A stretch of 64,000 nt of DNA from Nemertoderma westbladi. Taxonomy: Eukaryota > Animalia > Xenacoelomorpha. The first letter of the stretch is position 1, and every line of letters starts with the position of its first letter. The notes beneath the pieces are model-generated. The model saw nothing but the letters and a program-made list of their open reading frames with translations, did no database searches and was not told the DNA's origin. Shown here piece by piece: positions 1 through 60,913 of the stretch. The position numbers were made by a program, and so were the translations under genes. Location: the NCBI GenBank assembly GCA_032718475.1, contig JAUCBJ010009124.1:17422-81421 (forward strand). Reading direction: 5' to 3'.

Positions 1-3000
1 CTGGGGTAGGTTGGTACAAACCGAGGTAGGTTGGTACAAACCGAGGTAGGTTGGTACAAACCGTGTAGGTTGGTACAAACGGAGGTAGGTTGGTACAAAC
101 CGAGGTAGGTTGTTACTAACCGAGGTAGGTTGGTACACACCGAGGTACGTTGGTACAAACCGAGGTAGGTTGGTACAAACCGAGGTAGGTTGGTATAAAC
201 TGGGGTAGGTTGGTACAAACCGAGGTAGGTTGGTATAAACTGGGGTAGGTTGGTACAAACCGAGGTAGGTTGTTACAAACTGAGGTAGGTTGGTACAAAC
301 CGAGGTAGGTTGTTACAAACTGAGGTAGGTTGGTACAAACCGAGGTAGGTTTGTACAAACCGAGGTAGGTTGGTACAAACCGAGGTAGGTTGTTACAAAC
401 CGAGGTAGGTTGGTACAAACCGTGTAGGTTGGTACAAACCGAGGTAGGTTGGTACAAACCGAGGTAGGTTGGTACAAACTGGGATAGGTTGGTACAAACT
501 GATTGTAGGTTGGTACAAACCGAGGTAGGTTGGTACAAACTGGGGTAGGTTTGTACAAACCGAGGTAGGTTGTTACAAACCGAGTAGGTTGGTACAAACC
601 GAGGTAGGTTTGTACAAACCGAGGTAGGTTGGTACAAACTGGGGTAGGTTGGTACAAACCGAGGTAGGTTGGTACAAACCGTGTAGGTTGGTACAAACCG
701 AGGTAGGTTGGTACAAACTGATTGTAGGTTGGTACAAACTGGGGTAGGTTGGTACAAACCGAGGTAGGTTGGTACAAACCGAGGTAGGTTGGTACAAACC
801 GAGGTAGGTTGGTACAAACCGAGGTAGGTTGGTACAAACCGAGGTAGGTTGGTACAAACCGAGGTAGGTTGGTACAAACCGAGGTAGGTTGGTACAAACT
901 GGGGTAGGTTGGTACAAACCGAGGTAGGTTGGTACAAACCGAGGTAGGTTGGTACAACCCGAGGTAGGTTAGTACAAACCGAGGTAGGTTGGTACAAACC
1001 GAGGTAGGTTGGTACAAACCGAGGTAGGTTGGTACAAACTGGGGTAGGTTGGTTCAAACTGGGGTAGGTTGGTACAAACCGAGGTAGGTTGGTACAAACC
1101 GAGTAGGTTGTTACAAACCGAGGTAGGTTGGTACAATCTGGGTTAGGTTGGTACAAACCGAGGTAGGTTGGTACAAACCGAGGTAGGTTGGTACAAACCG
1201 AGGTAGGTTGGTACAAACCGAGGTAGGTTGGTACAAACCGAGGTAGGTTGGTACAACCCGAGGTAGGTTAGTACAAACCGAGGTAGGTTGGTACAAACCG
1301 AGGTAGGTTGGTACAAACCGAGGTAGGTTGGTACAAACTGGGGTAGGTTGGTACAAACTGGGGTAGGTTGGTACAAACCGAGGTAGGTTGGTACAAACCG
1401 AGTAGGTTGTTACAAACCGAGGTAGGTTGGTACAATCTGGGGTAGGTTGGTACAAACCGAGGTAGGTTGGTACAAACCGAGGTAGGTTGGTACAAACCGA
1501 GGTAGGTTGGTACAAACCGAGGTAGGTTGGTACAAACCGAGGTAGGTTGGTACAAACTGGGGTAGGTTGGTACAAACCGAGGTAGGTTGGTACAAACCGA
1601 GGTAGGTTGGTACAAACCGAGGTAGGTTGGTACAACCCGAGGTAGGTTAGTACAAACCGAGGTAGTTTGGTACAAACCGAGGTAGGTTGGTACAAACCGA
1701 GGTAGGTTGGTACAAACCGAGGTAGGTTGGTACAAACCGAGGTAGGTTGTTACAAACCGAGTAGGTTGGTACAAACCGAGGTAGGTTTGTACAAACCGAG
1801 GTAGGTTGGTACAAACTGGTGTAGGTTGGTACAAACTGATTGTAGGTTGGTACAAACCGAGGTAGGTTGGTACAAACTGGGGTAGGTTTGTACAAACCGA
1901 GGTAGGTTGTTACAAACCGAGTAGGTTGGTACAAACCGAGGTAGGTTGGTACAAACTGAGGTAGGTTTGTACAAACCGAGGTAGGTTGGTACAAACCGAG
2001 GTAGGTTGGTACAAACCGTGTAGGTTGGTACAAACCGAGGTAGGTTGGTACAAACTGATTGTAGGTTGGTACAAACTGGGGTAGGTTGGTACAAACCGAG
2101 GTAGGTTGGTACAAACCGAGATAGGTTGGTACAAACTAAGGTAGGTTGGTACAAACCGAGGTAGGTTGGTACAAACCGAGTTAGGTTGTTACAAACCGAG
2201 TAGGTTGTTACAAACCGAGGTAGGTTGGTACAAACCGAGGTAGGTTGGTACAAACTGGGGTAGGTTGGTACAAACCGAGGTAGGTTGGTACAAACTGAGG
2301 TAGGTTGGTACAAACTGAGGTAGGTTTGTACAAACCGAGGTAGGTTGGTACAAACTGGGGTAGGTTGGTACAAACCGAGGTAGGTTGGTACAAACCGAGA
2401 TAGGTTTGTACAAACTGAGGTAGGTTTGTACAAACCGAGGTAGGTTGGTACAAACCGAGGTAGGTTGGTACAAACCGTGTAGGTTGGTACAAACCGAGGT
2501 AGGTTGGTACAAACTGATTGTAGGTTGGTACAAACTGGGGTAGGTTGGTACAAACCGAGGTAGGTTGGTACAAACCGAGATAGGTTGGTACAAACTAAGG
2601 TAGGTTGGTACAAACCGAGGTAGGTTGGTACAAACCGAGTTAGGTTGTTACAAACCGAGTAGGTTGTTACAAACCGAGGTAGGTTGGTACAAACCGAGGT
2701 AGGTTGGTACAAACTGGGGTAGGTTGGTACAAACCGAGGTAGGTTGGTACAAACTGAGGTAGGTTGGTACAAACTGAGGTAGGTTGGTATAAACCGAGGT
2801 AGGTTGATACAAACGGAGGTAGGTTGGTACAAACCGAGGTAGGCTGGTACAAACCGAGGTAGGTTGGTACAAACCGAGGTAGGTTGTTACAAACCGAGGT
2901 AGGTTGTTACAAACCGAGTAGGTTGTTACAAACCGAGTAGGTTGTTACAAACCGAGTAGGTTGGTATAAACCGAGGTAGGTTGGTACAAACCGAGGTAGG

Positions 3001-4675
3001 TTGGTACAAACTGGGGTAGGTTGGTACAAACCGAGGTAGGTTGGTACAAACCGAGGTAGGTTGGTACAAACCGTGTAGGTTGGTACAAACCGAGGTAGGT
3101 TGGTACAAACCGTGTAGGTTGGTACAAACCGAGGTAGGTTGGTACAAACTGAGGTAGGTTGGTACAAACCGAGGTAGGCTGGTACAAACCGAGGTAGGTT
3201 GGTATAAACCGAGGTAGGTTGGTACAAACCGAGGTAGGTTGGTACAAACTGGGGTAGGTTGGTATAAACCGAGGTAGGTTGGTACAAACCGAGGTAGGTT
3301 GGTACAAACCGTGTAGGTTGGTACAAACCGAGGTAGGTTGGTACAAACCGAGGTAGGTTGGTACAAACCGTGTAGGTTGGTACAAACCGTTTAGGTTGGT
3401 ACAAACCGAGGTAGGTTGGTACAAACCGAGGTAGGTTTGTACAAACCGAGGTAGGTTGGTATAAACTGGGGTAGGTTGGTACAAACTGAGGTAGGTTGGT
3501 ACAAACTGAGGTAGGTTGGTACAAACCGAGGTAGGTTGTTTCAAACTGAGGTAGGTTGGTACAAACCGTGTAGGTTGGTACAAACTGAGGTAGGTTGTTA
3601 CAAACCGAGGTAGGTTGGTACAAACCGAGGTAGGTTGTTACAAACCGAGGTAGGTTGGTACAAACCGAGGTAGGTTGGTACAAACCGAGGTAGGCTGGTA
3701 CAAACCGAGGTAGGTTGGTATAAACCGAGGTAGGTTGGTACAAACCGAGGTAGGTTGGTACAAACTGGGGTAGGTTGGTATAAACCGAGGTAGGTTGGTA
3801 CAAACCGAGGTAGGTTGGTACAAACCGTGTAGGTTGGTACAAACCGAGGTAGGTTGGTACAAACCGAGGTAGGTTGGTACAAACCGTGTAGGTTGGTACA
3901 AACCGTTTAGGTTGGTACAAACCGAGGTAGGTTGGTACAAACCGAGGTAGGTTTGTACAAACCGAGGTAGGTTGGTATAAACTGGGGTAGGTTGGTACAA
4001 ACTGAGGTAGGTTGGTACAAACCGAGGTAGGTTGGTATAAACCGAGGTAGGTTGGTACAAACCGAGGTAGGTTGGTACAAACTGGGGTAGGTTGGTATAA
4101 ACCGAGGTAGGTTGGTACAAACCGAGGTAGGTTGGTACAAACCGTGTAGGTTGGTACAAACCGAGGTAGGTTGGTACAAACCGAGGTAGGTTGGTACAAA
4201 CCGTGTAGGTTGGTACAAACCGTTTAGGTTGGTACAAACCGAGGTAGGTTGGTACAAACCGAGGTAGGTTTGTACAAACCGAGGTAGGTTGGTATAAACT
4301 GGGGTAGGTTGGTACAAACTGAGGTAGGTTGGTACAAACTGAGGTAGGTTGGTACAAACCGAGGTAGGTTGTTTCAAACTGAGGTAGGTTGGTACAAACC
4401 GTGTAGGTTGGTACAAACTGAGGTAGGTTGTTACAAACCGAGGTAGGTTGGTACAAACCGAGGTAGGTTGTTACAAACTGAGGTAGGTTGGTACAAACTG
4501 AGGTAGGTTGGTACAAACCGAGGTAGGTTGGTACAAACCGTGTAGGTTGGTACAAACTGAGGTAGGTTGTTACAAACCGAGGTAGGTTGGTACAAACCGA
4601 GGTAGGTTGTTACAAACCGAGGTAGGTTGGTACAAACCGAGGTAGGTTGGTACAAACCGAGGGTAGGTTGGTATA
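1..4675 (+). repeat. 20-bp tandem array (TGGTACAAACCGAGGTAGGT)n, ~235 copies, running off the left edge; lies in the last intron of the LAR-family PTP gene
   Basis: Unit read directly; 19-bp deletion variants and CTGGGG/CTGATT/CCGTG variants present; ends ~85 nt before the AG acceptor at 4758-4759. Confidence 0.97.
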
Positions 4676-4759: not shown

Positions 4760-4828
4760 GACCAATACGCGTTGTGTTATAAAGCGGCATTGGAATACGT
4801 TGGCAGTTACGATCAGTATTTATCCTAG
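4760..4828 (+). CDS. Lar: Last coding exon of a LAR/PTPRD/PTPRS-family receptor protein tyrosine phosphatase (end of D2 domain)
   Basis: tttgcag|GAC CAA TAC... translates DQYALCYKAALEYVGSYDQYLS*, matching the conserved LAR-family C-terminus (VQTE)DQYxxCYxAALEYLGSFDHY; followed by AT-rich 3'UTR-like sequence. Confidence 0.85.
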   Translation, partial: DQYALCYKAALEYVGSYDQYLS

Positions 4829-6253: not shown

Positions 6254-9200
6254 GAATGCCTATTTGAATGCCTGTTCACCACATGGGTGATCTTCCACAG
6301 TAAACTCTTCCACTCTGTTTCCTAAAGGAATGCCTGTTCACCACATGGGTGATCTTCCACAGTAAACCCTTCCGCTCTGTTTCCTAAAGGAATGCCTGTT
6401 CACCACCATGGGTGATCTTCCACAGTAAACCCTTCCACTCTCTTTTCCAAAGGAATGCCTGTTCACTACCATGGGTGATCTTCCACAGTAAACCCTTCCG
6501 CTCTGTTTCCTAAAGGAATGCCTGTTCGCCACCACGAGTGATCTTCCATAGTAAACCCTTCCACTCTCTTTTCCAAAGGAATGCCTGTTCACTACCATGG
6601 GTGATCTTCCACAGTAAACCCTTCCACTCTGTTTCCTAAAGGAATCCCTGTTCACCACCATGGGTGATCTTCCACAGTAAACCCTTCCACTCTGTTTCCC
6701 AAAGGAATGCGTGTTCACCACCATGGGTCATCTTCCACAGTAAACCCTTCCACTCTGCTGTTTCATAAAGGAATGCCTGTTCACCACCATGGGTGATCTT
6801 CCATAGTAAACCCTTCCACTCTGTTTCCTAAAGGAATGCCTGTTCACCACCATGGATGATCTTCCATAGTAAACTCTTCCACTCTGTTTTCTAAAGGAAT
6901 GCCTGTTCACCACCATGGGTGATCTTCCACAGTAAACCCTTCCACTCTGTTTCCTAGAGGAATGCCTGTTCAATACAATGGGTGATCTTCCACAGTAAAC
7001 CCTTCCACTCTGTTTCCCAAAGGAATGCCTGTTCACCACCATGGGTGATCTTCCACAGTAAACCCTTCCACTCTGTTTCCTAAAGGAATGCCTGTTCACT
7101 ACCATGGGTGATCTTCCACAGTAAATCCTTCCATTATGTTTCCTAAAGGAATGCCTGTTCACCAACATGGGCGATCTTCCGCAGTAAACCCTTCCACTCT
7201 GTTTCCCAAAGGAATGCCTGTTCACCACCATGGGTGATCTTCCACAGTAAACCCTTCCACTCTGTTTCCCAAAGGAATGCCTGTCCACCACCATGGCTGA
7301 TCTTCCACAGTAAATCCTTCCATTATGTTTCCTAAAGGAATGCCTGTTCACCACCATGGGTGATCTTCCACAGTAAACCCTTCCACTCTGTTTCCTAAAG
7401 GAATCCCTGTTCATTACCATGGGTGATCTTCCACGTAAACCCTTCCACTCTGTTTCCCAAAGGAATGCGTGTTAACCACCATGGGTGATTTTCCACGTAA
7501 ACCCTTCCACTCTGTTTCCTAGAGGAATGCCTGTTCAACACAATGGGTGATCTTCCACAGTAAACCCTTCCACTCTGTTTCCTAAAGGAATCCCTGTTCA
7601 TTACCATGGGTGATCTTCCACGTAAACCCTTCCACTCTGTTTCCCAAAGGAATGCGTGTTAACCACCATGGGTGATTTTCCACGTAAACCCTTCCACTCT
7701 GTTTCCTAGAGGAATGCCTGTTCAACACAATGGGTGATTTTCCACGTAAACCCTTCCACTCTGTTTCCCAAAGGAATGCCTGTTAACCACCATGGGTGAT
7801 TTTCCACGTAAACCCTTCCACTCTGTTTCCTAGAGGAATGCCTGTTCAACACAATGGGTGATCTTCCACAGTAAACCCTTCCACTCTGTTTCCCAAAGGA
7901 ATGCCTGTTCACCACCATGGGTGATTTTCCACAGTAAACCCTTCCTTCCACTCTGTTTCGCAAAGGAATGCGTGTTAACCACCATGGGTGATTTTCCACG
8001 TAAACCCTTCCACTCTGTTTCCCAAAGGAATGCCTGTTCACCACCATGGGTGATCTTCCACAGTAAACCCTTCCACTCTGTTTCCTAGAGGAATGCCTGT
8101 TCAACACAATGGGTGATCTTCCACAGTAAACCCTTCCACTCTGTTTCCCAAAGGAATGCCTGTTCACCACCATGGGTGATTTTCCACAGTAAACCCTTCC
8201 TTCCACTCTGTTTCCCAAAGGAATGCCTGTTCACCACCATGGGTGATCTTCCACAGTAAACCCTTCCACTCTGTTTCCTAAAGGAATCCCTGTTCATTAC
8301 CATGGGTGATCTTCCACGTAAACCCTTCCACTCTGTTTCCCAAAGGAATGCCTGTTCACCACCATGGGTGATCTTCCACAGTAAACCCTTCCACTCTGTT
8401 TCCCAAAGGAATGCCTGTCCACCACCATGGCTGATCTTCCACAGTAAACCCTTCCACCCTGTTGCTTAAAGGAATGCCTGTTCACCACCATGGGTGATCT
8501 TCCACAGTAAACCCTTCCACTCTGTTTCCTAAAGGAATCCCTGTTCACTGCCATGGGTGATCTTCCACGTAAACCCTTCCACTCTGTTTCCCAAATGAAT
8601 GCGTGTTAACCACCATGGGTGATTTTCCACGTAAACCCTTCCACTCTGTTTCCTAAAGGAATGCCTGTTCACCACCATGGGTGATCTTCCTCAGTAAACC
8701 CTTCCACTCTGTTTCCCAAAGGAATGCGTGTTCACCACCATGGGTCATCTTCCACATTAAACCCTTCCAATCTGCTGTTTCCTAAAGGAATGCCTGTTCA
8801 CCACCATGGGTGATCTTCCACAGTAAACCCTTCCACTCTGTTTCCCAAAGGAATGCGTGTTCACCACCATGGGTCATCTTCCACATTAAACCCTTCCAAT
8901 CTGCTGTTTCCTAAAGGAATGCCTGTTCACCACCATGGGTGATCTTCCACAGTAAACCCTTCCACTCTGTTTCCTAAAGGAATGCCTGTTCACCACCATG
9001 GGTGATTTTCCACAGTAAATCCTTCCATTATGTTTCCTAAAGGAATGCCTGTTCACCAACATGGGCGATCTTCCGCAGTAAACCCTTCCACTCTGTTTCC
9101 CAAAGGAATGCCTGTTCACCACCATGGGTGATCTTCCACAGTAAACCCTTCCACTCTGTTTCCCAAAGGAATGCCTGTCCACCACCATGGCTGATCTTCC

Positions 9201-11543
9201 ACAGTAAATCCTTCCATTATGTTTCCTAAAGGAATGCCTGTTCACCAACATGGGCGATCTTCCGCAGTAAACCCTTCCACTCTGTTTCCCAAAGGAATGC
9301 CTGTTCACCACCATGGGTGATCTTCCACAGTAAACCCTTCCACTCTGTTTCCCAAAGGAATGCCTGTCCACCACCATGGCTGATCTTCCACAGTAAATCC
9401 TTCCATTATGTTTCCTAAAGGAATGCCTGTTCACCAACATGGGCGATCTTCCGCAGTAAACCCTTCCACTCTGTTTCCCAAAGGAATGCCTGTTCACCAC
9501 CATGGGTGATCTTCCACAGTAAACCCTTCCACTCTGTTTCCCAAAGGAATGCCTGTTCACCAACATGGGCGATCTTCCGCAGTAAACCCTTCCACTCTGT
9601 TTCCCAAAGGAATGCCTGTTCACCACCATGGGTGATTTTCCACAGTAAACCCTTCCACTCTATTTCCTAAAGGAATGCCTGTCCACCACCATGGCTGATC
9701 TTCCACAGTAAATCCTTCCATTATGTTTCCTAAAGGAATGCCTGTTCACCAACATGGGCGATCTTCCGCAGTAAACCCTTCCACTCTGTTTCCCAAAGGA
9801 ATGCCTGTTCACCACCATGGGTGATCTTCCACAGTAAACCCTTCCACTCTGTTTCCCAAAGGAATGCCTGTTCACCACCATGGGTGATCTTCCACAGTAA
9901 ACCCTTCCACTCTGTTTCCTAAAGGAATGCCTGTTCACCACCTTGGGTGTCTTCCACAGTAAATCCTTCCATTATGTTTCCTAAAGGAATGCCTGTTCAC
10001 CAACATGGGCGATCTTCCGCAGTAAACCCTTCCACTCTGTTTCCCAAAGGAATGCCTGTTCACCACCATGGGTGATCTTCCACAGTAAACCCTTCCACTC
10101 TGTTTCCCAAAGGAATGCCTGTCCACCACCATGGCTGATCTTCCACAGTAAATCCTTCCATTATGTTTCCTAAAGGAATGCCTGTTCACCAACATGGGCG
10201 ATCTTCCGCAGTAAACCCTTCCACTCTGTTTCCCAAAGGAATGCCTGTTCACCACCATGGGTGATCTTCCACAGTAAACCCTTCCACTCTGTTTCCCAAA
10301 GGAATGCCTGTCCACCACCATGGCTGATCTTCCACAGTAAATCCTTCCATTATGTTTCCTAAAGGAATGCCTGTTCACCAACATGGGCGATCTTCCGCAG
10401 TAAACCCTTCCACTCTGTTTCCCAAAGGAATGCCTGTTCACCACCATGGGTGATCTTCCACAGTAAACCCTTCCACTCTGTTTCCCAAAGGAATGCCTGT
10501 TCACCAACATGGGCGATCTTCCGCAGTAAACCCTTCCACTCTGTTTCCCAAAGGAATGCCTGTTCACCACCATGGGTGATTTTCCACAGTAAACCCTTCC
10601 ACTCTATTTCCTAAAGGAATGCCTGTCCACCACCATGGCTGATCTTCCACAGTAAATCCTTCCATTATGTTTCCTAAAGGAATGCCTGTTCACCAACATG
10701 GGCGATCTTCCGCAGTAAACCCTTCCACTCTGTTTCCCAAAGGAATGCCTGTTCACCACCATGGGTGATCTTCCACAGTAAACCCTTCCACTCTGTTTCC
10801 CAAAGGAATGCCTGTTCACCACCATGGGTGATCTTCCACAGTAAACCCTTCCACTCTGTTTCCTAAAGGAATGCCTGTTCACCACCTTGGGTGTCTTCCA
10901 CAGTAAACCCTTCCACTCTGTTTCCTAAAGGAATGCCTGTTCACCAACATGGGCGATCTTCCGCAGTAAACCCTTCCACTCTGTTTCCCAAAGGAATGCC
11001 TGTTCACCACCATGGGTGATTTTCCACAGTAAACCCTTCCACTCTATTTCCTAAAGGAATGCCTGTCCACCACCATGGCTGATCTTCCACAGTAAATCCT
11101 TCCATTATGTTTCCTAAAGGAATGCCTGTTCACCAACATGGGCGATCTTCCGCAGTAAACCCTTCCACTCTGTTTCCCAAAGGAATGCCTGTTCACCACC
11201 ATGGGTGATCTTCCACAGTAAACCCTTCCACTCTGTTTCCCAAAGGAATGCCTGTTCACCACCATGGGTGATCTTCCACAGTAAACCCTTCCACTCTGTT
11301 TCCTAAAGGAATGCCTGTTCACCACCTTGGGTGTCTTCCACAGTAAACCCTTCCACTCTGTTTCCTAAAGGAATGCCTGTTCACCACCATGGGTGATCTT
11401 CCACAGTAAACCCTTCCACTCTGTTTCCTAAATGAATGCCTGTTCACCACCATGGGTGATCTTCCACGTAAACCCTTCCATTATGTTTCCCAAAGGAATG
11501 CCTGTTCACCAACATGGGTGATCTTCCACAGTAAATCCTTCCA
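6254..11543. repeat. 63-bp satellite (~84 copies) with higher-order structure, intergenic between the two convergent 3' ends
   Basis: Unit GAATGCCTGTTCACCACCATGGGTGATCTTCCACAGTAAACCCTTCCACTCTGTTTCCTAAAG; identical ORF-track blocks recur at offsets of 944 and 440 bp. Confidence 0.97.
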
Positions 11544-11597
11544 CAAATATGTTGTGTGACCCCTAGATCCCTTCCTATAAATGTATAATCCCAAAGG

Positions 11598-11838
11598 CGC
11601 CCATGTGAAGAATACCAGGATTTCACTTTTCATTTCATTTTTTTAATTTATCTTTATTAAATATTTTTGGCGCTTATTTCTGTCTTATAACCTGTACATA
11701 TACTAATTCGTTTATTGTTTTAGTTAAATTCAGCCCTTCTGTAACCTGTGTTTTTGGTGAAAACCTGGTATTCTTCACATGGGGGTAACTGCAAAGTGAA
11801 ATATAACTGCAGAGAGTCTGGTATTCTTCACATGGGCC
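11598..11838. mobile_element. MITE with ~20-bp TIRs and an 8-bp target-site duplication
   Basis: GCCCATGTGAAGAATACCAG ... CTGGTATTCTTCACATGGGC; extra internal TIR copy at ~11765-11783; CCCAAAGG on both flanks (11590-11597, 11839-11846). Confidence 0.75.
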
Positions 11839-11949
11839 CCCAAAGGAATGCCTACTACATTATAGCCCATAAAGATATGTGGGCCCTACGCCTACAATAA
11901 AAAACGATACGGATTTTTATGCGAAGTTTAGACGAAAACGTAGATTATA

Positions 11950-12252: not shown

Positions 12253-12266
12253 CTGTAATTAAAAAT

Positions 12267-12488
12267 TAATTTTATTTATTTGTGGGGAATTAATTTCGCA
12301 CTATCAAATCGCCAGGGCGCCATATTTTCCAGCTATATATCGCAGTGCGACATTATTTAACAGTATGACCCTACGCCATACATTTTACTATGTACAGTAT
12401 TTCCAGTATGTCACCGCGTCATTATTAGGTTGTTCTAGAAAGTTTGACTGCATAACTACTAATAATTCCCCACAAATAAATAAAATTA
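12267..12488. mobile_element. MITE with perfect 26-bp inverted termini (TA-bounded) in the last PKD1-like intron
   Basis: TAATTTTATTTATTTGTGGGGAATTA ... TAATTCCCCACAAATAAATAAAATTA. Confidence 0.7.
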
Positions 12489-13029: not shown

Positions 13030-16000
13030 GCCGTTGGTTGATTACCTTCCGCCGACCTTGTCTGCAGGACTAGCCGTTGGTTGATTACCTTCCGCCGACC
13101 TTGTCTGCATGGCTAGCCGTTGGTTGATTACCTTCCGCCGACCTTGTCTGCAGGACTAGCCGTTGGTTGATTACCTTCCGCCAACATGGTCTGCAGGACT
13201 AGCCGTTGGTTGATTACCTTCCGCCGACCTTGTCTGCAGGACTAGCCGTTGGTTGATTACCTTCCGCCGACCTTGTCTGCATGGCTAGCCGTTGGTTGAT
13301 TACCTTCCGCCAACCTTGTCTGCAGGACTAGCCGTTTGTTGATTACCTTCCGCCGACCTTGTCTGCAGGACTAGCCGTTGGTTGATTACCTTCCGCCGAC
13401 CTTGTCTCCATGACTAACCGTTGGTTGATTACCTTCCGCCGACCTTGTCTGCAGGACTAGCCGTTGGTTGATTACCTTCCGCCGACCTTGTCTGCAGGAC
13501 TAGCCGTTGGTTGATTACCTTCCGCCAACATGGTCTGCAGGACTAGCCGTTGGTTGATTACCTTCCGCCGACCTTGTCTGCAGGACTAGCCGTTGGTTGA
13601 TTACCTTCCGCCGACCTTGTCTGCAGGACTAGCCGTTGGTTGATTACCTTCCGCCGACCTTGTCTGCAGGACTAGCCGTTGGTTGATTACCTTCCGCCGA
13701 CCTTGTCTGCAGGACTAGCCGTTGGTTGATTACCTTCCGCCGACCTTGTCTGCAGGACTAGCCGTTGGTTGATTACCTTCCGCCAACCTTGTCTGCAGGA
13801 CTAGCCGTTGGTTGATTACCTTCCGCCGACCTTGTCTGCAGGACTAACCGTTGGTTGATTACCTTCCGCCAACCTTGTCTGCAGGACTAGCCGTTGGTTG
13901 ATTACCTTCCGCCAACATGGTCTGCAGGACTAGCCGTTGGTTGATTACCTTCCGCCGACCTTGTCTGCAGGACTAGCCGTTGGTTGATTACCTTCCGCCG
14001 ACCTTGTCTGCAGGACTAGCCGTTGGTTGATTACCTTCCGCCAACCTTGTCTGCAGGACTAGCCGTTGGTTGATTACCTTCCGCCGACCTTGTCTGCAGG
14101 ACTAACCGTTGGTTGATTACCTTCCGCCGACCTTGTTTGCAGGACTAGCCGTTGGTTGATTACCTTCCGCCGACCTTGTCTGCAGGACTAGCCGTTGGTT
14201 GATTACCTTCCGCCGACCTTGTCTGCAGGACTAGCCGTTGGTTGATTACCTTCCGCCGACCTTGTCTGCAGGACTAGCCGTTGGTTGATTACCTTCCGCC
14301 GACCTTGTCTGCAGGACTAGCCGTTGGTTGATTACCTTCCGCCGACCTTGTCTGCAGGACTAGCCGTTGGTTGATTACCTTCCGCCGACCTTGTCTGCAG
14401 GACTAGCCGTTGGTTGATTACCTTCCGCCGACCTTGTCTGCAGGACTAGCCGTTGGTTGATTACCTTCCGCCGACCTTGTCTGCAGGACTAGCCGTTGGT
14501 TGATTACCTTCCGCCGACCTTGTCTGCAGGACTAGCCGTTGGTTGATTACCTTCCGCCGACCTTGTCTGCAGGACTAGCCGTTGGTTGATTACCTTCCGC
14601 CGACCTTGTCTGCAGGACTAGCCGTTGGTTGATTACCTTCCGCCGACCTTGTCTGCAGGACTAGCCGTTGGTTGATTACCTTCCGCCGACCTTGTCTGCA
14701 GGACTAGCCGTTGGTTGATTACCTTCCGCCGACCTTGTCTGCAGGACTAGCCGTTGGTTGATTACCTTCCGCCGACCTTGTCTGCAGGACTAGCCGTTGG
14801 TTGATTACCTTCCGCCGACCTTGTCTGCAGGACTAGCCGTTGGTTGATTACCTTCCGCCGACCTTGTCTGCAGGACTAGCCGTTGGTTGATTACCTTCCG
14901 CCGACCTTGTCTGCATGACTAGCCGTTGGTTGATTACCTTCCGCCGACCTTGTCTGCAGGACTAGCCGTTGGTTGATTACCTTCCGCCGACCTTGTCTGT
15001 AGGACTAGCCGTTGGTTGATTACGTTCCGCCGACCTTGTCTGCAGGACTAGCCGTTGGTTGATTACCTTCCGCCGACCTTGTCTGAAGGACTAGCCGTTG
15101 GTTGATTACCTTCCGCCGACCTTGTCTGCAGGACTAGCCGTTGGTTTATTACCTTCCGCCGACCTTGTCTGCATGACATGCCGTTTGTTGATTACCTTCC
15201 GCCGACCTTGTCTGCATGGCTAGCCGTTGGTTGATTACCTTCCACCAACCTTGTCTGCAGGACTAGCCGTTGGTTGATTACCTTCCGCCGACCTTGTCTG
15301 CAGGACTAGCCGTTGGTTGATTACCTTACGCCGACCTTGTCTGTATGTCTAGCCGTTGGTTGATTACCTTCCGCCGACCTTGTCTGCAGGACTAGCCGTT
15401 GGTTGATTACCTTCCGCCGACCTTGTCTGCAGGACTAGCCGTTGGTTGATTACCTTCCGCCGACCTTGTCTGCAGGACTAGCCGTTGGTTGATTACCTTC
15501 GGCCGACCTTGTCTGCGGGACTAGCCGTTGGTTGATTACCTTCCGCCGACCTTGTCTGCAGGACTAGCCGTTGGTTGATTACCTTCCGCCGACCTTGTCT
15601 GCAGGACTAGCCGTTGGTTGATTACCTTCCGCCAACCTTGTCTGCAGGACTAGCCGTTGGTTGATTACCTTCCGCCGACCTTGTCTGCAGGACTAGCCGT
15701 TGGTTGATTACCTTCCGCCAACCTTGTCTGCAGGACTAGCCGTTGGTTGATTACCTTCCGCCAACCTTGTTTGCAGGACTAGCCGTTGGTTGTTTACCTT
15801 CCACCGACCTTGTCTGCATGGCTAGCCGTTGGTTGATTACCTTCCGCCGACCTTGTCTGCAGGACTAGCCGTTGGTTGATTACCTTCCGCCGACCTTGTC
15901 TGCAGGACTAGCCGTTGGTTGATTACCTTCCGCCAACCTTGTCTGCAGGACTAGCCGTTGGTTGATTACCTTCCGCCAACCTTGTCTGCAGGACTAGCCG

Positions 16001-41575: not shown

Positions 41576-41604
41576 ACAAGTAATCTCAGAGTTCATACAG
41601 ATGT

Positions 41605-43989: not shown

Positions 43990-45200
43990 CCTAACATCAC
44001 ATCATAAGCTTAAGTTGTCTGTTTTTCTTTTTGTCTGTCTATTGGTCTGTTTTTCTGTTTGTCAACAAATTATGGATATAAAAATATACACCACCTAACT
44101 AAAATAATTGCTACATGGGTTTTCGTGGTCGCGGATTTCATTTCCAGGGTCAGTTTTCAAATTTGACGTAATCTAGTTTGTCTGTCCGTCTGTCGGTCTG
44201 TCTGTCAAAAACATAACGAATCACACTACGTAAGCTTTTAAGGTCGGTGATTTCATTTCTGGTGTTATCTTTCCTGTTTGGAGGAGTCTATTATGCCTTT
44301 ATATTTGTCTGTCAGTCGATCTGTCTGTACATACAGACAGACTTAAACAGACAGTCTAGGTTCATGCAATTATTAAAAATGACATCATGGGAAATGAAAT
44401 CAGCAACTAGGAAAACCCCCATATCAGAAATTATAGTAAAGTGATGTGTTTACTTATATTTTATCTGTGACACCGACAGTAAGTCAGACAGACAGACAAA
44501 CAGACAGACAGACCGAAAGACAGATAGACATACAGACAGTCCAGATGTCATCAAACATTAAAACATGTATTAGAAATGAAATCATAGACTAGGAAAACCC
44601 CCATATCTGAAATTTTATTCAGGTGACATGCCTCCTTATATTTTGACTGACAGACAGACAGACAAAAAAACAGACAAACAGACATTCTAGGTTCAGTCAA
44701 ATATTAAAATTCACATCGGAAATGGAATCAGACACTAGGAAAACCCCATATCATAAATTATAGTAAAGTGATGTGCTTACTTATTTATTGTCTGTGAGAT
44801 TGACAGTCAGACAGACAGAATGACATACAGACAGGCAGTTCAGATATCATCAAACATTAAAACATATATCAGAAATAAATTCAGCGACTACGAAAAGCCC
44901 CATATCTGAAATTTTATTCAGGTGACATGCCTCCTTATATTTTGACTGACAGACAGACAGACAAAAAAACAGACAAACAGACATTCTAGGTTCAGTCAAA
45001 TATTAAAATTCACATCGGAAATGGAATCAGACACTAGGAAAACCCCATATCATAAATTATAGTAAAGTGATGTGCTTACTTATTTATTGTCTGTGAGATT
45101 GACAGTCAGACAGACAGAATGACAGACAGACAGGCAGTTCAGATATCATCAAACATTAAAACATATATCAGAAATAAATTCAGCGACTACGAAAACCCCT
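43990..45200. repeat. ~150-bp repeats containing (GACA)n microsatellites, in two oppositely oriented blocks; probably internal to a non-autonomous DNA/Helentron-like element
   Basis: GAAAACCCC motif recurs at ~44411, 44593, 44740, 44892, 45038 and 45191; near-exact 299-bp duplication; reverse-complement units at 43990-44330. Confidence 0.7.
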
Positions 45201-46434
45201 AAATCGTAAATTTTGGTTCGTAAATTTTAGTTGGTAAATTTTCGCTGGAGTAGTTTATTATATTTTGGCTTATTTTTGAAATTTCCTGCGTTTTACATAA
45301 AATTAGCGGGAAGGTTTGAAAACTTAAAATGCGTTTTTCTCAGCATCTTATTTTTCGTGAAATTTCGAAATAAATGCACCTTTTTCTCGAGAACGGCTTG
45401 ATGGAATAGGCTGAAATTTTAGTGAATTTAGTGATATTAGTGCTGGAATTTAGTGATAAAAAATTTCGAAATCTACAAACTGAGAAGAAGATTGTTTTAT
45501 ACAATACGCATGTCGCATTCAGAGCTTCATGAATATCAGCCATAAATACTGTTGTTCTTGTTTACGAAAATATTATATGTATTTTGGACAGTCTCCCTGG
45601 GGTACCTACAAAATTACCTCCTCGAGGTATTTTTTTTTCAATTTTCTTATTTCATCAATGAAAATTTCAAAAATATTTGAAGAAATTAAAAAAAAATTTA
45701 TAAATTTTTTTTTAACAAATTTCAAATTTTTTAATTCAAGTTTCTGTTTGGTGATGAAAAAATCACTCTCCAGTGAAAACCGATGTCACCACATGAAAGC
45801 CCTTCTATCAGACTAAAAAAATAGATAAAACAAACTTTGTGAATATTTTCTAAATTTTCTAAAATTACCCACACAAACATTGCGGTCACGTTAAATAATT
45901 ATGATCAAATTTGACCATGGTTCATCGTGTTACATAATATATAAATAAACTATATTAATAAATTAAATAAATAGAAATAGAAAAAATTTAATGAAAAATA
46001 AACAAAATAAAAGAAAAATTATTATATACCATTCTCCAGACTACAGACAGTAGATAGTCCTATAGTGTCGTAATTCAGTGACAACCCCCCCTCACCCCCC
46101 CCCCCCCCCCCACAAAAAAATTATACAAAAAAAAATCTTATAATACTAATATTATTATATAACTAACTACTTGAAATTGTTGTGCCGTTTCTATTTACCA
46201 ATCATTTAGACCAAAATAATTAAGTGTGACGGGATCCAACGGAGTTGGCAGTATGGATCCCGACCGGTGTGTGTTATACGCGTCACCGCGTTCGTAGGCT
46301 GCTAGAAGCTGTGGTCTGGATATATATAATAGGCCGAAAGCCGTTGAAATAACTGAGTTTTTACTCTACAGATACCAACTGAATCATAACCCACAAGTAC
46401 AACGGTTATATATTATTAACATATTAATCACTGC

Positions 46435-48525: not shown

Positions 48526-50087
48526 TGACCATTCTTATTTTTTTTGGAAAAAAAATTATTTTTATTTTTTTCACTAAAATCGCTCTAACTTCGGTTCTGG
48601 TGGTCCAAATTCAATAAAATTGGTATATTCTTTGCCGTAATTTTTTTCTTAATCTTTTGAGAAGGGGTTATTTTTGGCCCCAAAAAAATTAAAAAAAAGG
48701 GCCAAAATAACGCGATATTTTTCGACCCTTATAATTCGTAATTTTAATTATATATGTTAAGATAAAAGATAGCGGAGTTAATTTGATACTTTTTACAGGT
48801 ACTTTTGGCGCAATACGCTAAATTATAATGGAATAGCGATTTGTTAAAAAAAAAAAATTTTCGTCCCTTTTTATAAATATAATATTTCACACGATCGCCT
48901 GCCGCTCCAGTTTTATAATACCTCCGGCGCTGTGATTAACGCTGTTAGATAGATAATTTAACGCACTATAAGTCTGTGTAAACAAATCTCCCGTAAGTTA
49001 AGTAGTTTTCGAGCTAGACGATTTCCCGCGAAGCAAGTTTGAAGCGCGAAATTATAATTTTGGCCCTCATTTTTTTAATATCATCCTTGGAGCAAAACCG
49101 ATAGCATATTTGAATTCCCCGTATGGATATTGACTGTATAGAATGTACCTTAACCAACTAAAGTTAAAAATAAAAAATCATTCGATAAAAACTACTTTAC
49201 AAATTCTGGCCCTTTTTGGCCCCTATTGCCGACATATTTTTTGTACCCCCATTCGATAGGAACGTAGCCCCAATGGTCTTCTAAGAGTTTCATAAAAGAA
49301 TTAGTGGATTCCTACCCGCGTTGTCGAATTAAACATTTCGGAAATAAGTTTTCTAAAAAAGACGGACAAAAACGTACAAATTTACAGCCCCTTTTTCCAC
49401 CCGAAATTTTAATAAATATCTTACCCCCATTCGATACGAAGGTAGTACCACTCTTCCCCTTTCCAACCGCGTTACTTTCGTCCCCGTACGATTAATATTA
49501 GCCGAGTTATAGCGGATCCCGCAAAGTCATTTTGTCCGTTTTTTCAACTTTGACGGACATTTTAGGAAAAAAGGCATGGTAATCTTTTTTGAAAAAAAAA
49601 ACGAATTCACTAATTAATCCCTTCTATCGTATCCCGGCGTCGGCTAAGCAATAACCTAGGGTTTTTTCGAGCCACTGTAGAGCGCCTTTCAAAAAAATTT
49701 TAAAATTGTCGAAAAAATGACGGTTTTTTGTCCGCCGTGTCCGTCGAAGGGTTAGATTTAATAATGTTAGAGTTGCTAATATCTTAGAATTCCGAGCCGC
49801 TCCCCTGGTGAGAAAATAAAAAAAATTGGTCGTTTCCTTCACCGAAAAGTCCCCCAGAATCCCAAGTTAACCTATATAGTTAGCGATGGCCTGCGGCTTA
49901 AGGAGCGGCCGCGGTATTCACCTCCCTCATAGCGGCCGCGGCGGTGTTGCGTCAAATGGAGAAATATTTATCCCACCAAGCGAAAATATTTTTAACCGAT
50001 AACGTAAATTATTATTCGTCATCAGGCGGACCTTGGGTACTAATGACAGTCAGACAGGAGCGAAACGAGCAATATAGTACAGTATAT

Positions 50088-51441: not shown

Positions 51442-52691
51442 CTGTAATCAATTAATTACCAAATTATTAACAATCATTTAATTGGTAAATCTATAAACAA
51501 ATAATTTATTATAATTAAATTAAATGTTATTAAGTATTAATAATTTTTATTTAATTAAATAATATAATCATTATTAAAACCACTAACCCCAATTTAAAAA
51601 CAACCATATTTATTTATCTCAATTCTCTCTCATTAATATACCCACCCACAGGGACAACACCTACTATAGCTACTTAGCTATTCGTTGTTGCCCCTATCCT
51701 TCTCTGATACCATTTTAATTGTGCAATATGTTCTATAGTATGTCGCAAGAAGAACAAAATGTTAATTGAATTGAATTGAATAGATATACAAACAATTTAG
51801 AATAAACAAAGAGTCGGCCGAAGCCGGAAACGACCCGAAGGCCCCACTATTGTTCGCACATTTGTATAACTTCCACAGTATTCTAACAAAGAATTTTATT
51901 AATCACAGAATTCTCACTTAAATTTTGTCAATCAAGTAAAATAAAACTATAAATCAAACTACCGCGGCGTGAGACCCAAAGGGAGTCTGAAATATATTGG
52001 CAGGTTAAAATAGGCCGCGAGTGCATCAGTAGATTAATTCTCGCAAAATAATTCCTAACAGCAATATGGGGGACGAACAGGGATTGTATCAACAGATCCG
52101 TTTGGGATGTCGTGCTCCAGATATCAAACAGGTACATGTCTAACGGCGATTACAACATAAAACTAAGAAAGATTATAGTCTGCATGTCCTTTAGGGACAG
52201 GGTATGTTTATATAATATTAATAACTAATATTAATGGGTCCGCATATTTCTCCATATACATCATAAACCATTATTTACAAAGTTAAGCATTAAGTATAAT
52301 ATACTGTACAAGTGCAGCAGTAATTAGTCAGTCAATAATTGTGCCAAGCCAACGTAACTGACATATTCTCGGCGTCCAGCAAGGATGTTAACACAACAAG
52401 TCCTATCTGCGTCAGCAAAACAGCCGAATGAGATTCTGGAAAGGTTGTACCTAGCAGTTCCAGAAAAAACATGACATCATGGATAGTTGCCGGTTAACAA
52501 CCAATAAAAGCCGCCATTTTGCTCTGTTTACATTTTTATAAAGGGATTCAGAAAGTGAAAAATAGATTCTATTGGTTTATTACTTTCAGTGTATACCAGG
52601 ACAGGACACGGCGGGGCGTGTGGAGTAGTACGGGATAGAGCTTAGCGGCAATAAAAAAGCGAATTTTAGGACGCTAAAGCTTTTACATCTT

Positions 52692-52864
52692 TCGAGGGTA
52701 AGGGTGGGCGTCACTCCTACCCCAAGATTTGCTCCCAGGTATTTAACTGGTACTCATTTTATCAACCCCAGTGGATAAATTGCTGAGTGGACCCTGGCGG
52801 GGCTCGAACCTACAACCAATAGATTGCAGGCCCGGGTCTCAACCAACTAATGAGCTACACCGCC
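52692..52864 (-). mobile_element. tRNA-derived SINE, second copy (head and body); a tail-like piece lies at 51805-51850
   Basis: Reverse complement aligns with 37539-37707; B-box GGTTCGAGCCC intact. Confidence 0.8.
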
Positions 52865-53199: not shown

Positions 53200-53545
53200 A
53201 AGTTATCCATAGTTTATAGCTGAAGTGCAACATACGCCAAACAACCAACATTTTATCATTCGAAACATAATAAATGTAATATTCCCCACCAGCAGGGATC
53301 GAACCCGCGTCTCAAGATAAACGTTCAGGTATGCCCACCACTACATCATGGAGTCTCCCGCATGTATTCTGAATTCAATAGCAACCGTAAGGAAGTTTAC
53401 CCCCTATAGCAAAACAATCGGAATGATGCAGGAGCCAACGTGGTGTAGTGGTTAGCATACCTGAACGTTTATCGGGAGACGCGGGTTCGATCCTCGCTGG
53501 TGGCGAATTCATTTTTTCCGCTCTATTTGCTATAGAGTTGGATCA
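53200..53545. mobile_element. Second foldback element with two inverted, outward-facing pseudo-tRNAs
   Basis: 53434-53505 is a 72-nt cloverleaf-like sequence (GCCAACG TGGTGTAGTGGTTAGCAT A CCTGA-ACGTTTA-TCGGG AGAC GCGGGTTCGATCCTCGC TGGTGGCG); inverted homologue at ~53284-53356; inverted similarity continues on both sides. Confidence 0.7.
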
Positions 53546-54926: not shown

Positions 54927-55058
54927 CTGCTGTATTGGAATAGGAATGGGTCCGAGTTTCACGGTATTAGAAGTTCCTTTACCAGCGATTGTTAGTGAAT
55001 AATAAGCGCAGGCGACACCGAACTCCAAAATAACGAACGCTAAACAGCAGGTGAGCCT
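54927..55058 (-). CDS. PKD1-like exon 3 (TM2)
   Basis: ttacag|AGG...CAG|gtaaat; RLTCCLAFVILEFGVACAYYSL...KLGPIPIPIQQ. Confidence 0.92.
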
Positions 55059-55184
55059 CTGTAAAGTTAAGTTATACCGTCGGGAAATAAACGAAAATAA
55101 ATTGAAAAATAACATCCAAGGAAGGCCAAATAAAAGGGCAGATAAAAACAAATAATAATATATGTCACAACTATTTCCTTATAG

Positions 55185-58100
55185 ACGAGTAAAGGACTTG
55201 TGATTGGTCATTCTTCTTACCTGTACAAGAGTAACTTGTGATTGGTCAACCTTCTTAATTAACTGTACACGAGTAACTTGTGATTGGTCAACCTTCTTAA
55301 TTAACTGTACACGAGTAACTTGTGATTGGTCATCTTTCTTAACTGTACAAGAGCAACTTGTGATTGGTCAACCTTCTTAATTAACTGTACACGAGTAACT
55401 TGTGATTGGTCAACCTTCTTAATTAACTGTACACGAGTAACTTGTGATTGGTCATCTTTCTTAACTGTACAAGAGTAACTTGTGATTGGTCAACCTTCTT
55501 AATTAACTGTACACGAGTAACTTGTGATTGGTCATCTTTCTTAACTGTACAAGAGTAACTTGTGATTGGTCAACCTTCTTAATTAACTGTACACGAGTAA
55601 CTTGTGATTGGTCAACCTTCTTAATTAACTGTACACGAGTAACTTGTGATTGGTCATCTTTCTTAACTGTACAAGAGTAACTTGTGATTGGTCAACCTTC
55701 TTAATTAACTGTACACGAGTAACTTGTGATTGGTCATCTTTCTTAACTGTACAAGAGTAACTTGTGATTGGTCAACCTTCTTAATTAACTGTACACGAGT
55801 AACTTGTGATTGGTCAACCTTCTTAATTAACTGTACACGAGTAACTTGTGATTGGTCATCTTTCTTAACTGTACAAGAGTAACTTGTGATTGGTCAACCT
55901 TCTTAATTAACTGTACACGAGTAACTTGTGATTGGTCATCTTTCTTAACTGTACAAGAGCAACTTGTGATTGGTCAACCTTCTTAATTAACTGTACACGA
56001 GTAACTTGTGATTGGTCAACCTTCTTAATTAACTGTACACGAGTAACTTGTGATTGGTCATCTTTCTTAACTGTACAAGAGTAACTTGTGATTGGTCAAC
56101 CTTCTTAATTAACTGTACACGAGTAACTTGTGATTGGTCAACCTTCTTAATTAACTGTACAAGAGTAACTTGTGATTGGTCAACCTTCTTAATTAACTGT
56201 ACACGAGTAACTTGTGATTGGTCATCTTTCTTAACTGTACAAGAGTAACTTGTGATTGGTCAACCTTCTTAATTAACTGTACACGAGTAACTTGTGATTG
56301 GTCAACCTTCTTAATTAACTGTACACGAGTAACTTGTGATTGGTCATCTTTCTTAACTGTACAAGAGTAACTTGTGATTGGTCAACCTTCTTAATTAACT
56401 GTACACGAGTAACTTGTGATTGGTCATCTTTCTTAACTGTACAAGAGTAACTTGTGATTGGTCAACCTTCTTAATTAACTGTACACGAGTAACTTGTGAT
56501 TGGTCAACCTTCTTAATTAACTGTACACGAGTAACTTGTGATTGGTCATCTTTCTTAACTGTACAAGAGTAACTTGTGATTGGTCAACCTTCTTAATTAA
56601 CTGTACACGAGTAACTTGTGATTGGTCATCTTTCTTAACTGTACAAGAGCAACTTGTGATTGGTCAACCTTCTTAATTAACTGTACACGAGTAACTTGTG
56701 ATTGGTCAACCTTCTTAATTAACTGTACACGAGTAACTTGTGATTGGTCATCTTTCTTAACTGTACAAGAGTAACTTGTGATTGGTCAACCTTCTTAATT
56801 AACTGTACACGAGTAACTTGTGATTGGTCAACCTTCTTAATTAACTGTACAAGAGTAACTTGTGATTGGTCAACCTTCTTAATTAACTGTACACGAGTAA
56901 CTTGTGATTGGTCAACCTTCTTAATTAACTGTACACGAGTAACTTGTGATTGGTCATCTTTCTTAACTGTACAAGAGCAACTTGTGATTGGTCAACCTTC
57001 TTAATTAACTGTACACTAGTAACTTGTGATTGGTCATCTTTCTTAACTGTACAAGAGTAACTTGTGATTGGTCAACCTTCTTAATTAACTGTACACGAGT
57101 AACTTGTGATTGGTCAACCTTCTTAATTAACTGTACACGAGAAACTTGTGATTGGTCAACCTTCTTAATTAACTGTACAAGAGTAACTTGTGATTGGTCA
57201 ACCTTCTTAATTAACTGTACACGAGTAACTTGTGATTGGTCAACCTTCTTAATTAACTGTACACGAGTAACTTGTGATTGGTCAACCTTCTTAATTAACT
57301 GTACACGAGTAACTTGTGATTGGTCATCTTTCTTAACTGTACAAGAGTAACTTGTGATTGGTCAACCTTCTTAATTAACTGTACACGAGTAACTTGTGAT
57401 TGGTCAACCTTCTTAATTAACTGTACACGAGTAACTTGTGATTGGTCATCTTTCTTAACTGTACAAGAGCAACTTGTGATTGGTCAACCTTCTTAATTAA
57501 CTGTACACGAGTAACTTGTGATTGGTCAACCTTCTTAATTAACTGTACACGAGTAACTTGTGATTGGTCATCTTTCTTAACTGTACAAGAGCAACTTGTG
57601 ATTGGTCAACCTTCTTAATTAACTGTACACTAGTAACTTGTGATTGGTCATCTTTCTTAACTGTACAATAGTAACTTGTGATTGGTCAACCTTCTTAATT
57701 AACTGTACACGAGTAACTTGTGATTGGTCAACCTTCTTAATTAACTGTACACGAGTAACTTGTGATTGGTCAACCTTCTTAATTAACTGTACACGAGTAA
57801 CTTGTGATTGGTCAACCTTCTTAATTAACTGTACACGAGTAACTTGTGATTGGTCATCTTTCTTAACTGTACAAGAGCAACTTGTGATTGGTCAACCTTC
57901 TTAATTAACTGTACACTAGTAACTTGTGATTGGTCATCTTTCTTAACTGTACAAGAGTAACTTGTGATTGGTCAACCTTCTTAATTAACTGTACACGAGT
58001 AACTTGTGATTGGTCAACCTTATATTAATTAACTGTACACGAGTAACTTGTGATTGGTCAACCTTCTTAATTAACTGTACACGAGTAACTTGTGATTGGT

Positions 58101-60763
58101 CAACCTTCTTAATTAACTGTACACGAGTAACTTGTGATTGGTCAACCTTCTTAATTAACTGTACACGAGTAACTTGTGATTGGTCATCTTTCTTAACTGT
58201 ACAAGAGTAACTTGTGATTGGTCAACCTTCTTAATTAACTGTACACGAGTAACTTGTGATTGGTCATCTTTCTTAACTGTACAAGAGCAACTTGTGATTG
58301 GTCAACCTTCTTAATTAACTGTACACTAGTAACTTGTGATTGGTCATCTTTCTTAACTGTACAAGAGTAACTTGTGATTGGTCAACCTTCTTAATTAACT
58401 GTACACGAGTAACTTGTGATTGGTCATCTTTCTTAACTGTACAAGAGCAACTTGTGATTGGTCAACCTTCTTAATTAACTGTACACGAGTAACTTGTGAT
58501 TGGTCAACCTTCTTAATTAACTGTACACGAGTAACTTGTGATTGGTCATCTTTCTTAACTGTACAAGAGTAACTTGTGATTGGTCAACCTTCTTAATTAA
58601 CTGTACACGAGTAACTTGTGATTGGTCATCTTTCTTAACTGTACAAGAGCAACTTGTGATTGGTCAACCTTCTTAATTAACTGTACACGAGTAACTTGTG
58701 ATTGGTCAACCTTCTTAATTAACTGTACACGAGTAACTTGTGATTGGTCAACCTTCTTAATTAACTGTACACGAGTAACTTGTGATTGGTCATCTTTCTT
58801 AACTGTACAAGAGTAACTTGTGATTGGTCAACCTTCTTAATTAACTGTACACGAGTAACTTGTGATTGGTCATCTTTCTTAACTGTACAAGAGCAACTTG
58901 TGATTGGTCAACCTTCTTAATTAACTGTACACGAGTAACTTGTGATTGGTCAACCTTCTTAATTAACTGTACACGAGTAACTTGTGATTGGTCATCTTTC
59001 TTAACTGTACAAGAGCAACTTGTGATTGGTCAACCTTCTTAATTAACTGTACACGAGTAACTTGTGATTGGTCAACCTTCTTAATTAACTGTACACGAGT
59101 AACTTGTGATTGGTCATCTTTCTTAACTGTACAAGAGCAACTTGTGATTGGTCAACCTTCTTAATTAACTGTACACTAGTAACTTGTGATTGGTCAACCT
59201 TCTTAATTAACTGTACACGAGTAACTTGTGATTGGTCAACCTTCTTAATTAACTGTACACGAGTAACTTGTGATTGGTCATCTTTCTTAACTGTACAAGA
59301 GTAACTTGTGATTGGTCAACCTTCTTAATTAACTGTACACGAGTAACTTGTGATTGGTCATCTTTCTTAACTGTACAAGAGCAACTTGTGATTGGTCAAC
59401 CTTCTTAATTAACTGTACACGAGTAACTTGTGATTGGTCAACCTTCTTAATTAACTGTACACGAGTAACTTGTGATTGGTCAACCTTCTTAATTAACTGT
59501 ACACGAGTAACTTGTGATTGGTCAACCTTCTTAATTAACTGTACACTAGTAACTTGTGATTGGTCATCTTTCTTAACTGTACAAGAGTAACTTGTGATTG
59601 GTCATTCTTCTTAATTAACTGTACACGAGTAACTTGTGATTGGTCAACCTTCTTAATTAACTGTACACTAGTAACTTGTGATTGGTCATCTTTCTTAACT
59701 GTACAAGAGTAACTTGTGATTGGTCATTCTTCTTAATTAACTGTACACGAGTAACTTGTGATTGGTCAACCTTCTTAATTAACTGTACACGAGTAACTTG
59801 TGATTGGTCAACCTTCTTAATTAACTGTACACGAGTAACTTGTGATTGGTCATCTTTCTTAACTGTACAAGAGTAACTTGTGATTGGTCAACCTTCTTAA
59901 TTAACTGTACACGAGTAACTTGTGATTGGTCATCTTTCTTAACTGTACAAGAGCAACTTGTGATTGGTCAACCTTCTTAATTAACTGTACACGAGTAACT
60001 TGTGATTGGTCAACCTTCTTAATTAACTGTACAAGAGTAACTTGTGATTGGTCAACCTTATATTAATTAACTGTACACGAGTAACTTGTGATTGGTCAAC
60101 CTTCTTAATTAACTGTACACTAGTAACTTGTGATTGGTCATCTTTCTTAACTGTACAAGAGTAACTTGTGATTGGTCAACCTTCTTAATTAACTGTACAC
60201 GAGTAACTTGTGATTGGTCATCTTTCTTAACTGTACAAGAGCAACTTGTGATTGGTCAACCTTCTTAATTAACTGTACACGAGTAACTTGTGATTGGTCA
60301 ACCTTCTTAATTAACTGTACACGAGTAACTTGTGATTGGTCATCTTTCTTAACTGTACAAGAGTAACTTGTGATTGGTCAACCTTCTTAATTAACTGTAC
60401 ACGAGTAACTTGTGATTGGTCATCTTTCTTAACTGTACAAGAGCAACTTGTGATTGGTCAACCTTCTTAATTAACTGTACACGAGTAACTTGTGATTGGT
60501 CAACCTTCTTAATTAACTGTACACGAGTAACTTGTGATTGGTCATCTTTCTTAACTGTACAAGAGCAACTTGTGATTGGTCAACCTTCTTAATTAACTGT
60601 ACACGAGTAACTTGTGATTGGTCAACCTTCTTAATTAACTGTACAAGAGTAACTTGTGATTGGTCAACCTTATATTAATTAACTGTACACGAGTAACTTG
60701 TGATTGGTCATCTTTCTTACCTGAACGCGAGTAAATGGACTTGTGATTGGTCATCTTTCATAC
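55185..60763 (-). repeat. Mixed 42/38-bp intronic satellite (~135 units) derived from the upstream exon end and donor site
   Basis: Sense-strand units CCAATCACAAGTTACTCGTGTACAGTTAATTAAGAAGGTTGA and CCAATCACAAGTTACTCTTGTACAGTTAAGAAAGATGA. Confidence 0.97.
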
Positions 60764-60913
60764 CTGAACGCGAGTAAATGGACTTGTGATTGGCCGCAGG
60801 AACACGGAAAGGTAAATATGCTCATCGGAAATCATATCATGCGACTTGTTGTCAAAAAGCATATTAAACCCGGTTTGGTCTACAGAGGAAGCAACGGCTA
60901 AACGGCGGGAAAT
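60764..60913 (-). CDS. PKD1-like exon 2 seen (linker after PLAT)
   Basis: ttttag|ATT...CAG|gtatga; ISRRLAVASSVDQTGFNMLFDNKSHDMISDEHIYLSVFLRPITSPFTRVQ. Confidence 0.92.

Follow-up and report, generated by a model that had tools for sequence, protein, structure and literature searches.

Two unrelated genes on opposite strands converge in a 64,000-nucleotide (nt) stretch of the Nemertoderma westbladi genome (assembly GCA_032718475.1, contig JAUCBJ010009124.1, positions 17,422 to 81,421; hereafter the window), which holds the 3' end of each. In both genes, a LAR-type phosphatase and a member of the polycystin family, one intron carries a tandem array whose unit combines an exon end with a splice donor. 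Does this genome inflate small introns by amplification nucleated at exon-intron boundaries, as an original prediction from this DNA had proposed, or did ordinary repeats happen to begin there? We conclude that both donor arrays are probably ordinary local tandem duplications that straddled a donor and were grown by the same repeat turnover as the other four large arrays of the window. We see them as the likely and harmless by-product of repeat growth in general, not as the work of a dedicated intron-inflating process. The features concerned are:

55170-60793 (main array 55196-60793), minus strand: donor-spanning minisatellite of the polycystin-family gene, 38-44-bp unit, with GT at 60763, 60720 and 55220 and a degenerate terminal copy
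60764-60913, minus strand: predicted source exon of that array, placed by frame and GT-AG continuity
54927-55058, minus strand: predicted exon downstream of that array, placed by frame and GT-AG
5-4673, plus strand: minisatellite of the LAR-type phosphatase, within its last coding intron and spanning a donor, 20-bp unit made of 14 nt of exon end and GTAGGT; it exits the window's left edge
4760-4828, plus strand: the LAR/PTPRF-type phosphatase's last coding exon, with 22 codons before the stop, PTPRF match at E 2.3e-5
19327-19425, minus strand: degenerate two-copy duplication of an acceptor and exon start, copies 60 nt apart, with the true exon start at 19338 and the upstream copy at 19398

Splitting the polycystin array over 60800-55150 gave 137 units. 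The first consists of the last 30 nt of exon 60913-60764 followed by 13 nt of intron; the next, which is the first extra unit, is identical over the 30 exon-end nt and differs at one of its 43 positions overall. Array units were aligned to 33 splice junctions, with a null of 200 shuffles scored over all 33, and the polycystin unit reached 62 at its own junction, against a shuffle maximum of 25. As read from its sequence, the array is thus a mirage, or donor-spanning minisatellite, whose unit spans the putative authentic boundary. The exon status of 60764-60913 and 54927-55058 is a prediction from splice signals and frame: searched singly, neither exon returned relatives, and for the latter one search gave only chance antibody matches. 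We take the residues flanking the 60764/55058 junction to be a conserved polycystin-1 motif, for which searches with both exons gave no support. In most units of the array, 5 nt are deleted, two or three positions are substituted, and GT has become TT. Only 3 of the 137 units retain GT, namely the authentic donor at 60763, its neighbor at 60720, and a unit at 55220 at the far end, which is followed by a degenerate exon-like copy; the other 134 have TT. Units at both edges are therefore exon-like with GT, interior units are derived, and the 12 unit types lie in ordered blocks.

The phosphatase array comprises ~235 copies of TGGTACAAACCGAG followed by GTAGGT, that is, codons for (M)VQTE and a donor; the commonest unit (99 of 234) reads TG-GTA-CAA-ACC-GAG and then GTAGGT. 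The source exon lies outside the window, and homologues point to this array as a copy of exon end plus donor. The 22 residues encoded by 4760-4828 match the C-terminal end of LAR-type receptor phosphatases, and the exon begins with DQY. We compared 125 stored proteins, 123 of which have an ALEY anchor; MVQTE stands directly before DQY in 102 of these, most of which are redundant PTPRF entries of vertebrates and come from the 120 best among 6121 matches. The other 21 read xQ-DQY and would most simply be genomic gene calls that read through the acceptor CAG at the same place, and the intron position appears to be common to other animals. The chance of a unit spelling (M)VQTE and a donor is ~2e-7. 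Two multi-kilobase arrays of exon end plus donor in unrelated genes, as first proposed, are thus upheld, the polycystin one beside its exon and the phosphatase one by homology. More than 30 unit types occur in the phosphatase array, again in ordered blocks with distinct edge copies; this block structure, read from a single haplotype, suggests turnover in both arrays.

A two-copy acceptor duplication, originally placed at 19325-19420, also proved real, at 19327-19425. Its copies score 36 against each other; 2000 shuffles reached 26 at most, and the other 16 acceptors scored 10-21. The downstream copy (19338) is the true acceptor, as positions 59-116 and then 117-178 of the Pfam profile are contiguous across it. 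We rejected the upstream copy at 19398 for this role, since it reads 19 codons into a stop and the Pfam match is contiguous without it. By its sequence, this would be an old duplication of an acceptor boundary which, with two copies only, is not an array.

If junctions were the usual birthplace of arrays, the other large arrays should resemble junctions too. Six tandem arrays longer than 500 nt occupy 36,625 nt, or 57% of the window; four lie in polycystin introns, one past the polycystin stop codon, and one in the phosphatase intron. Two of the six repeat an exon end and donor, and the remaining four match no junction:

6266-11544: 63-bp array between the 3' ends of both genes, past the stop codon of the polycystin gene; no junction match
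13030-17974, minus strand: mid-intron 43-bp array (intron 18279-12792); donor-like word, no exon-end match
21829-37393: 42-bp array of 15.5 kilobases, from a short interspersed nuclear element (SINE)-like repeat; no junction match
38474-39042: 22-bp array inside intron 39688-38265; no junction match

Aligning monomers to exon ends, a check suggested with the original prediction, therefore ties the polycystin array to a junction directly and the phosphatase array by homology, but none of these four; the 63-, 42- and 22-bp arrays had not been listed before. The 43-bp array had been presented as a third case with a donor motif in every unit. The motif stands, as AAGGTAAT occurs in 111 of ~115 units, but a junction origin does not: the unit matches none of the 33 junctions (score 16, null mean 17), which led us to reject it as an exon-end copy, and a donor-like word agreeing at 7 of 9 positions is expected in ~9% of random intronic 43-mers. 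Its nearest donor is 306 nt away and its nearest acceptor 239 nt. This array was also considered as host of a missing polycystin exon and rejected, the exon having been found at 12791-12616. The 63-bp array was rejected as coding sequence because it lies past the stop codon and no intron joins it to the gene. Adjoining it is an element resembling a miniature inverted-repeat transposable element (MITE; 11596-11840) with 23-27-nt inverted ends and apparent 8-nt direct-repeat flanks. The flank and the 63-bp unit have 12 nt in common, so the array's seed region may extend there.

Over 32-33 nt, the 42-bp unit has 88-91% identity with two SINE-like copies nearby, which suggests that this array grew from the inside of a SINE resembling a transfer RNA (tRNA), the tRNA-derived label being a reading of A- and B-box-like words. 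Two free copies of the SINE lie near the array at 20190-20850 as a 197-nt inverted pair, 92% complementary. A run of 100 Ns interrupts the array at 28882-28981 and makes its length uncertain. The gap shows that lengths are inexact and would favor reading the arrays as assembly artefacts; the ordered variant blocks of both donor arrays (12 polycystin and more than 30 phosphatase unit types) and their distinct edge copies argue against this, and we consider it extremely improbable.

Smaller repeats point the same way as the large ones. An unbiased scan for small local duplications found eight, seven of them off junctions and one overlapping a junction. We see support for an ordinary origin of the donor arrays in this result, in the four large arrays that match no junction, and in the derivation of one of those from a SINE-like repeat. 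Because four of the six large arrays arose elsewhere, junction seeding is not the main growth route of this region. The proposal that small introns are inflated from junctions thus survives for two introns, which shrink to 117 and 150 nt when their arrays are collapsed, but not as a description of how the large arrays arose in general.

The original prediction knew of no description of junction-seeded growth as a general system. Such repeats have in fact been described, first-donor preference included, and the two mirage minisatellites of the window, though very large, and its small acceptor duplication are all of a known kind. The comparisons that follow draw on the available text of the cited papers. 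Mirages are reported in amphioxus Adh3, the globins BflGb6 and BflGb9, troponin C and PGBD5 (PMC3087553, PMC3902484), the latter two genes having been added by PMC3902484. Like the repeats in the window, they are tandem copies of exon-intron boundaries, include donor and acceptor types, affect several genes per genome, and have edge units that escape homogenization, as seen in the polycystin array. They differ in copy number (2-7, against 137 and more than 234 here) and in that splicing, which is reported as undisturbed, was checked there by reverse-transcription PCR (PMC3087553, PMC3902484), whereas here it is predicted from DNA. A possible generality in the lancelet lineage was proposed and both donor and acceptor kinds were reported (PMC3087553); with an acceptor duplication in the window as well, we rejected a rule by which donor mirages alone survive.

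Donor-spanning minisatellites are likewise described in human F7, 6-16, CBS, LMNB2 and PDGF (PMC1557585). In the F7 intron 7 (IVS7) 37-bp variable-number tandem repeat, 6-16, CBS IVS13, LMNB2 and PDGF intron 4, the first monomer spans the boundary and the donor is reiterated along the intron, as in the window. Those arrays have 5-26 copies as opposed to hundreds, and exon sequence makes up more of the unit in the window (14 of 20 nt and 30 of 43 nt) than in F7 (4 of 37). For F7, use of the most upstream donor was shown experimentally, in mammalian cells only (PMC1557585). Variable internal tandem repeats at exon-intron boundaries of human segmental duplications, with 27 intron modifications after manual checks (PMC2812944), also show boundary minisatellite growth altering gene structure; they concern recent paralogues and intron formation, and the available text of that paper contains no enrichment test for donor seeds. 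In the Rogers model (cited in PMC3087553), introns are gained by tandem duplication of an AG/GT segment. Splice signals are copied by tandem duplication in that model too, but the copies here would extend existing introns with their own acceptors and create no new intron. Both loci are therefore large examples of a described oddity, and the remaining point is quantitative.

These comparisons suggest how an ordinary duplication could have grown to kilobases. Slippage or unequal exchange would first have duplicated 20 or 43 nt spanning the junction; if the phosphatase exon carries the expected ATG, TGGTA would occur there twice, 20 nt apart. If, as the F7 and lancelet data suggest, only the most upstream donor is then chosen, the protein would be unchanged and the copies would become neutral intron. 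Interior variants would next spread in blocks and edge units stay exon-like, a step that the arrays show in outline; the polycystin interior would have been swept by a single G+1-to-T variant, and the phosphatase donors would have stayed intact.

Several observations weigh against this account. First-donor use would here be borrowed from other animals, and the second polycystin donor at 60720, 43 nt past the authentic one, is the stronger of the two, with 8 of 9 consensus positions as opposed to 7 of 9. With seeds placed uniformly on the 24,890 collapsed non-exonic bases, two or more donor matches among six arrays have P 0.009. Among 13 local duplications, the three at any junction have P 0.044 in one of two calculations (0.24 in the other). 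Finally, among 17 introns with a median of 877 nt, the two host introns are the shortest once collapsed, which uniform seeding does not predict (post hoc P 0.007); this is suggestive and unexplained.

The P value for six arrays and the shortness of the collapsed host introns speak for a rival reading, in which seeds would arise or persist preferentially at the donors of short introns, so that mirages would be over-represented among arrays. Possible causes include damage to exon ends linked to transcription or splicing, and the higher GC content of these ends. The small junction duplication at 19327-19425 adds a third case; the units of five of the six arrays have 47-54% GC, against 36% in non-exonic DNA and 43% in exons; and the lancelet authors suspected a general tendency (available text of PMC3087553). 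The polycystin mirage, however, has just 35% GC, and four arrays of larger or equal size had their origin elsewhere. The P value for six arrays also depends on intron size at seeding, climbing to 0.037 or 0.127 if the target was 12 or 6 kilobases (0.04-0.13), and the two donor cases among 13 duplications have P 0.062 or 0.21 (0.06-0.21). The 13-item test leaves out 49245-49444, one of the eight small duplications, as non-tandem, its copies being 178 nt apart. All these values come from a single window that was picked because the pattern was visible. We therefore hold a preference for junctions, in origin or in retention, to be doubtful, and a junction-targeted process to be a claim with the odds against it. 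The strongest version, with a strong enrichment of seeds at the donors of very short introns and with amplification of exon end plus donor as a regular route from a 100-150-nt to a multi-kilobase intron, is tentative to the same degree. If it were true, a last intron with hundreds of decoy donors, all intact and with the nearest mis-splices beyond the reach of nonsense-mediated decay, would offer a natural test of strict first-donor choice. Among the papers listed from a largely open-licence collection, none appeared to offer a genome-wide test of seed preference for junctions; a genome so rich in young arrays would permit one.

Returning to arrays grown by ordinary turnover, we asked why one of them lost its spare donors. 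The original prediction had amplified donors killed in one array only, possibly by selection. The contrast stands (134 of 137 units with TT, against 224 of 234 with GT), but one amplified mutation explains it more simply than selection. Selection against spare donors would mean that the polycystin array reached 5.6 kilobases only after its donor died, and indeed the entire expansion took place in a GT-dead lineage and use of the second donor would lead to an immediate stop. The 134 dead donors share one TT allele, however, and so count as one event. About three substitutions separate bulk units from the exon-proximal one, and GT would be struck by chance in ~13% of cases. The nearest and strongest spare donor, 60720, is moreover intact. 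GT loss thus looks like a single mutation that was then amplified and does not demonstrate selection.

The phosphatase array separates three possible safeguards: selection on donors, nonsense-mediated decay (NMD), and first-donor choice. Many of its variants fall at -2 and -1, as selection on donors might produce, but GT is kept in nearly all units. Comparing changes at GT with those at other monomer positions, another proposed check, gave no excess: among 20 distinct substitutions, 2 fall on GT (2 of 20 positions) and 8 on the nine donor positions, about as expected. Selection is therefore an improbable explanation. The commonest variant is a C to T change at a CpG (56 of 234 units, the copies being non-independent), which would fit DNA methylation. 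NMD generally requires a stop more than 50-55 nt upstream of the last junction. For the consensus phosphatase unit, mis-splicing that retains one extra unit carries a shifted frame into the last exon, where it would stop; with two or three extra units, the stop falls 16 or 36 nt short of the last junction, and the nearest mis-splices would thus escape NMD. With donors intact as well, fidelity at this locus would need first-donor choice, which is likely the main safeguard. In the polycystin gene, NMD could clear mis-splices from 60720, since its use gives an immediate stop. That exact, stronger donor with its premature stop could also be taken as functional, its regulated use, or that of the phosphatase donors, adjusting the level of polycystin or phosphatase through isoforms with a nonsense codon or an altered tail, and nearby pseudo-sites are used in human 6-16 and CBS (available text of PMC1557585). 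Unit lengths that break the frame and the resemblance of both arrays to neighboring non-junction arrays make this very improbable.

The polycystin introns above come from the following gene model:

62453-12129, minus strand: polycystin-family gene, 17-exon chain, 5' part outside the modelled stretch

All 16 introns are GT-AG, and the 882 codons contain no internal stop; the frames of both genes stay open in their visible part. Of 14 exons scanned with Pfam, seven match Polycystin_dom or PKD_channel, in order and three of them above the curated cut-off, and seven have no match. A word-indexed search with one polycystin-domain exon found no relatives. The architecture is one we take to be PKD1-like.

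Other repeats in the window lie away from the donor arrays. An older array at 44330-45212 alternates 146- and 153-nt units around CAGA runs, away from junctions. Perfect 26-nt terminal inverted repeats, 170 nt apart (12267-12488), start ~15 nt upstream of the last polycystin acceptor. A broken non-long-terminal-repeat (non-LTR) retrotransposon with an RVT_1 match lies in a polycystin intron (40160-42430), and a second copy of its 3' end lies near the right edge (62950-63175). Motifs from the dispersed repeats of the window, scanned against metagenome contigs, gave no match. The stretch 61485-62240 is GC-rich with broken open frames and may resemble how a CRE-type non-LTR element ends. A further dispersed repeat of SINE-like type occurs in several copies (37552-37767, 51804-51857, 52693-52848). 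Finally, the interval 53281-53508 holds a tRNA-Asn(GTT) at 53434-53505, which may be a SINE or pseudogene given its low Rfam score of 38.8 bits, and, just upstream of it, an inverted, 84% complementary copy.

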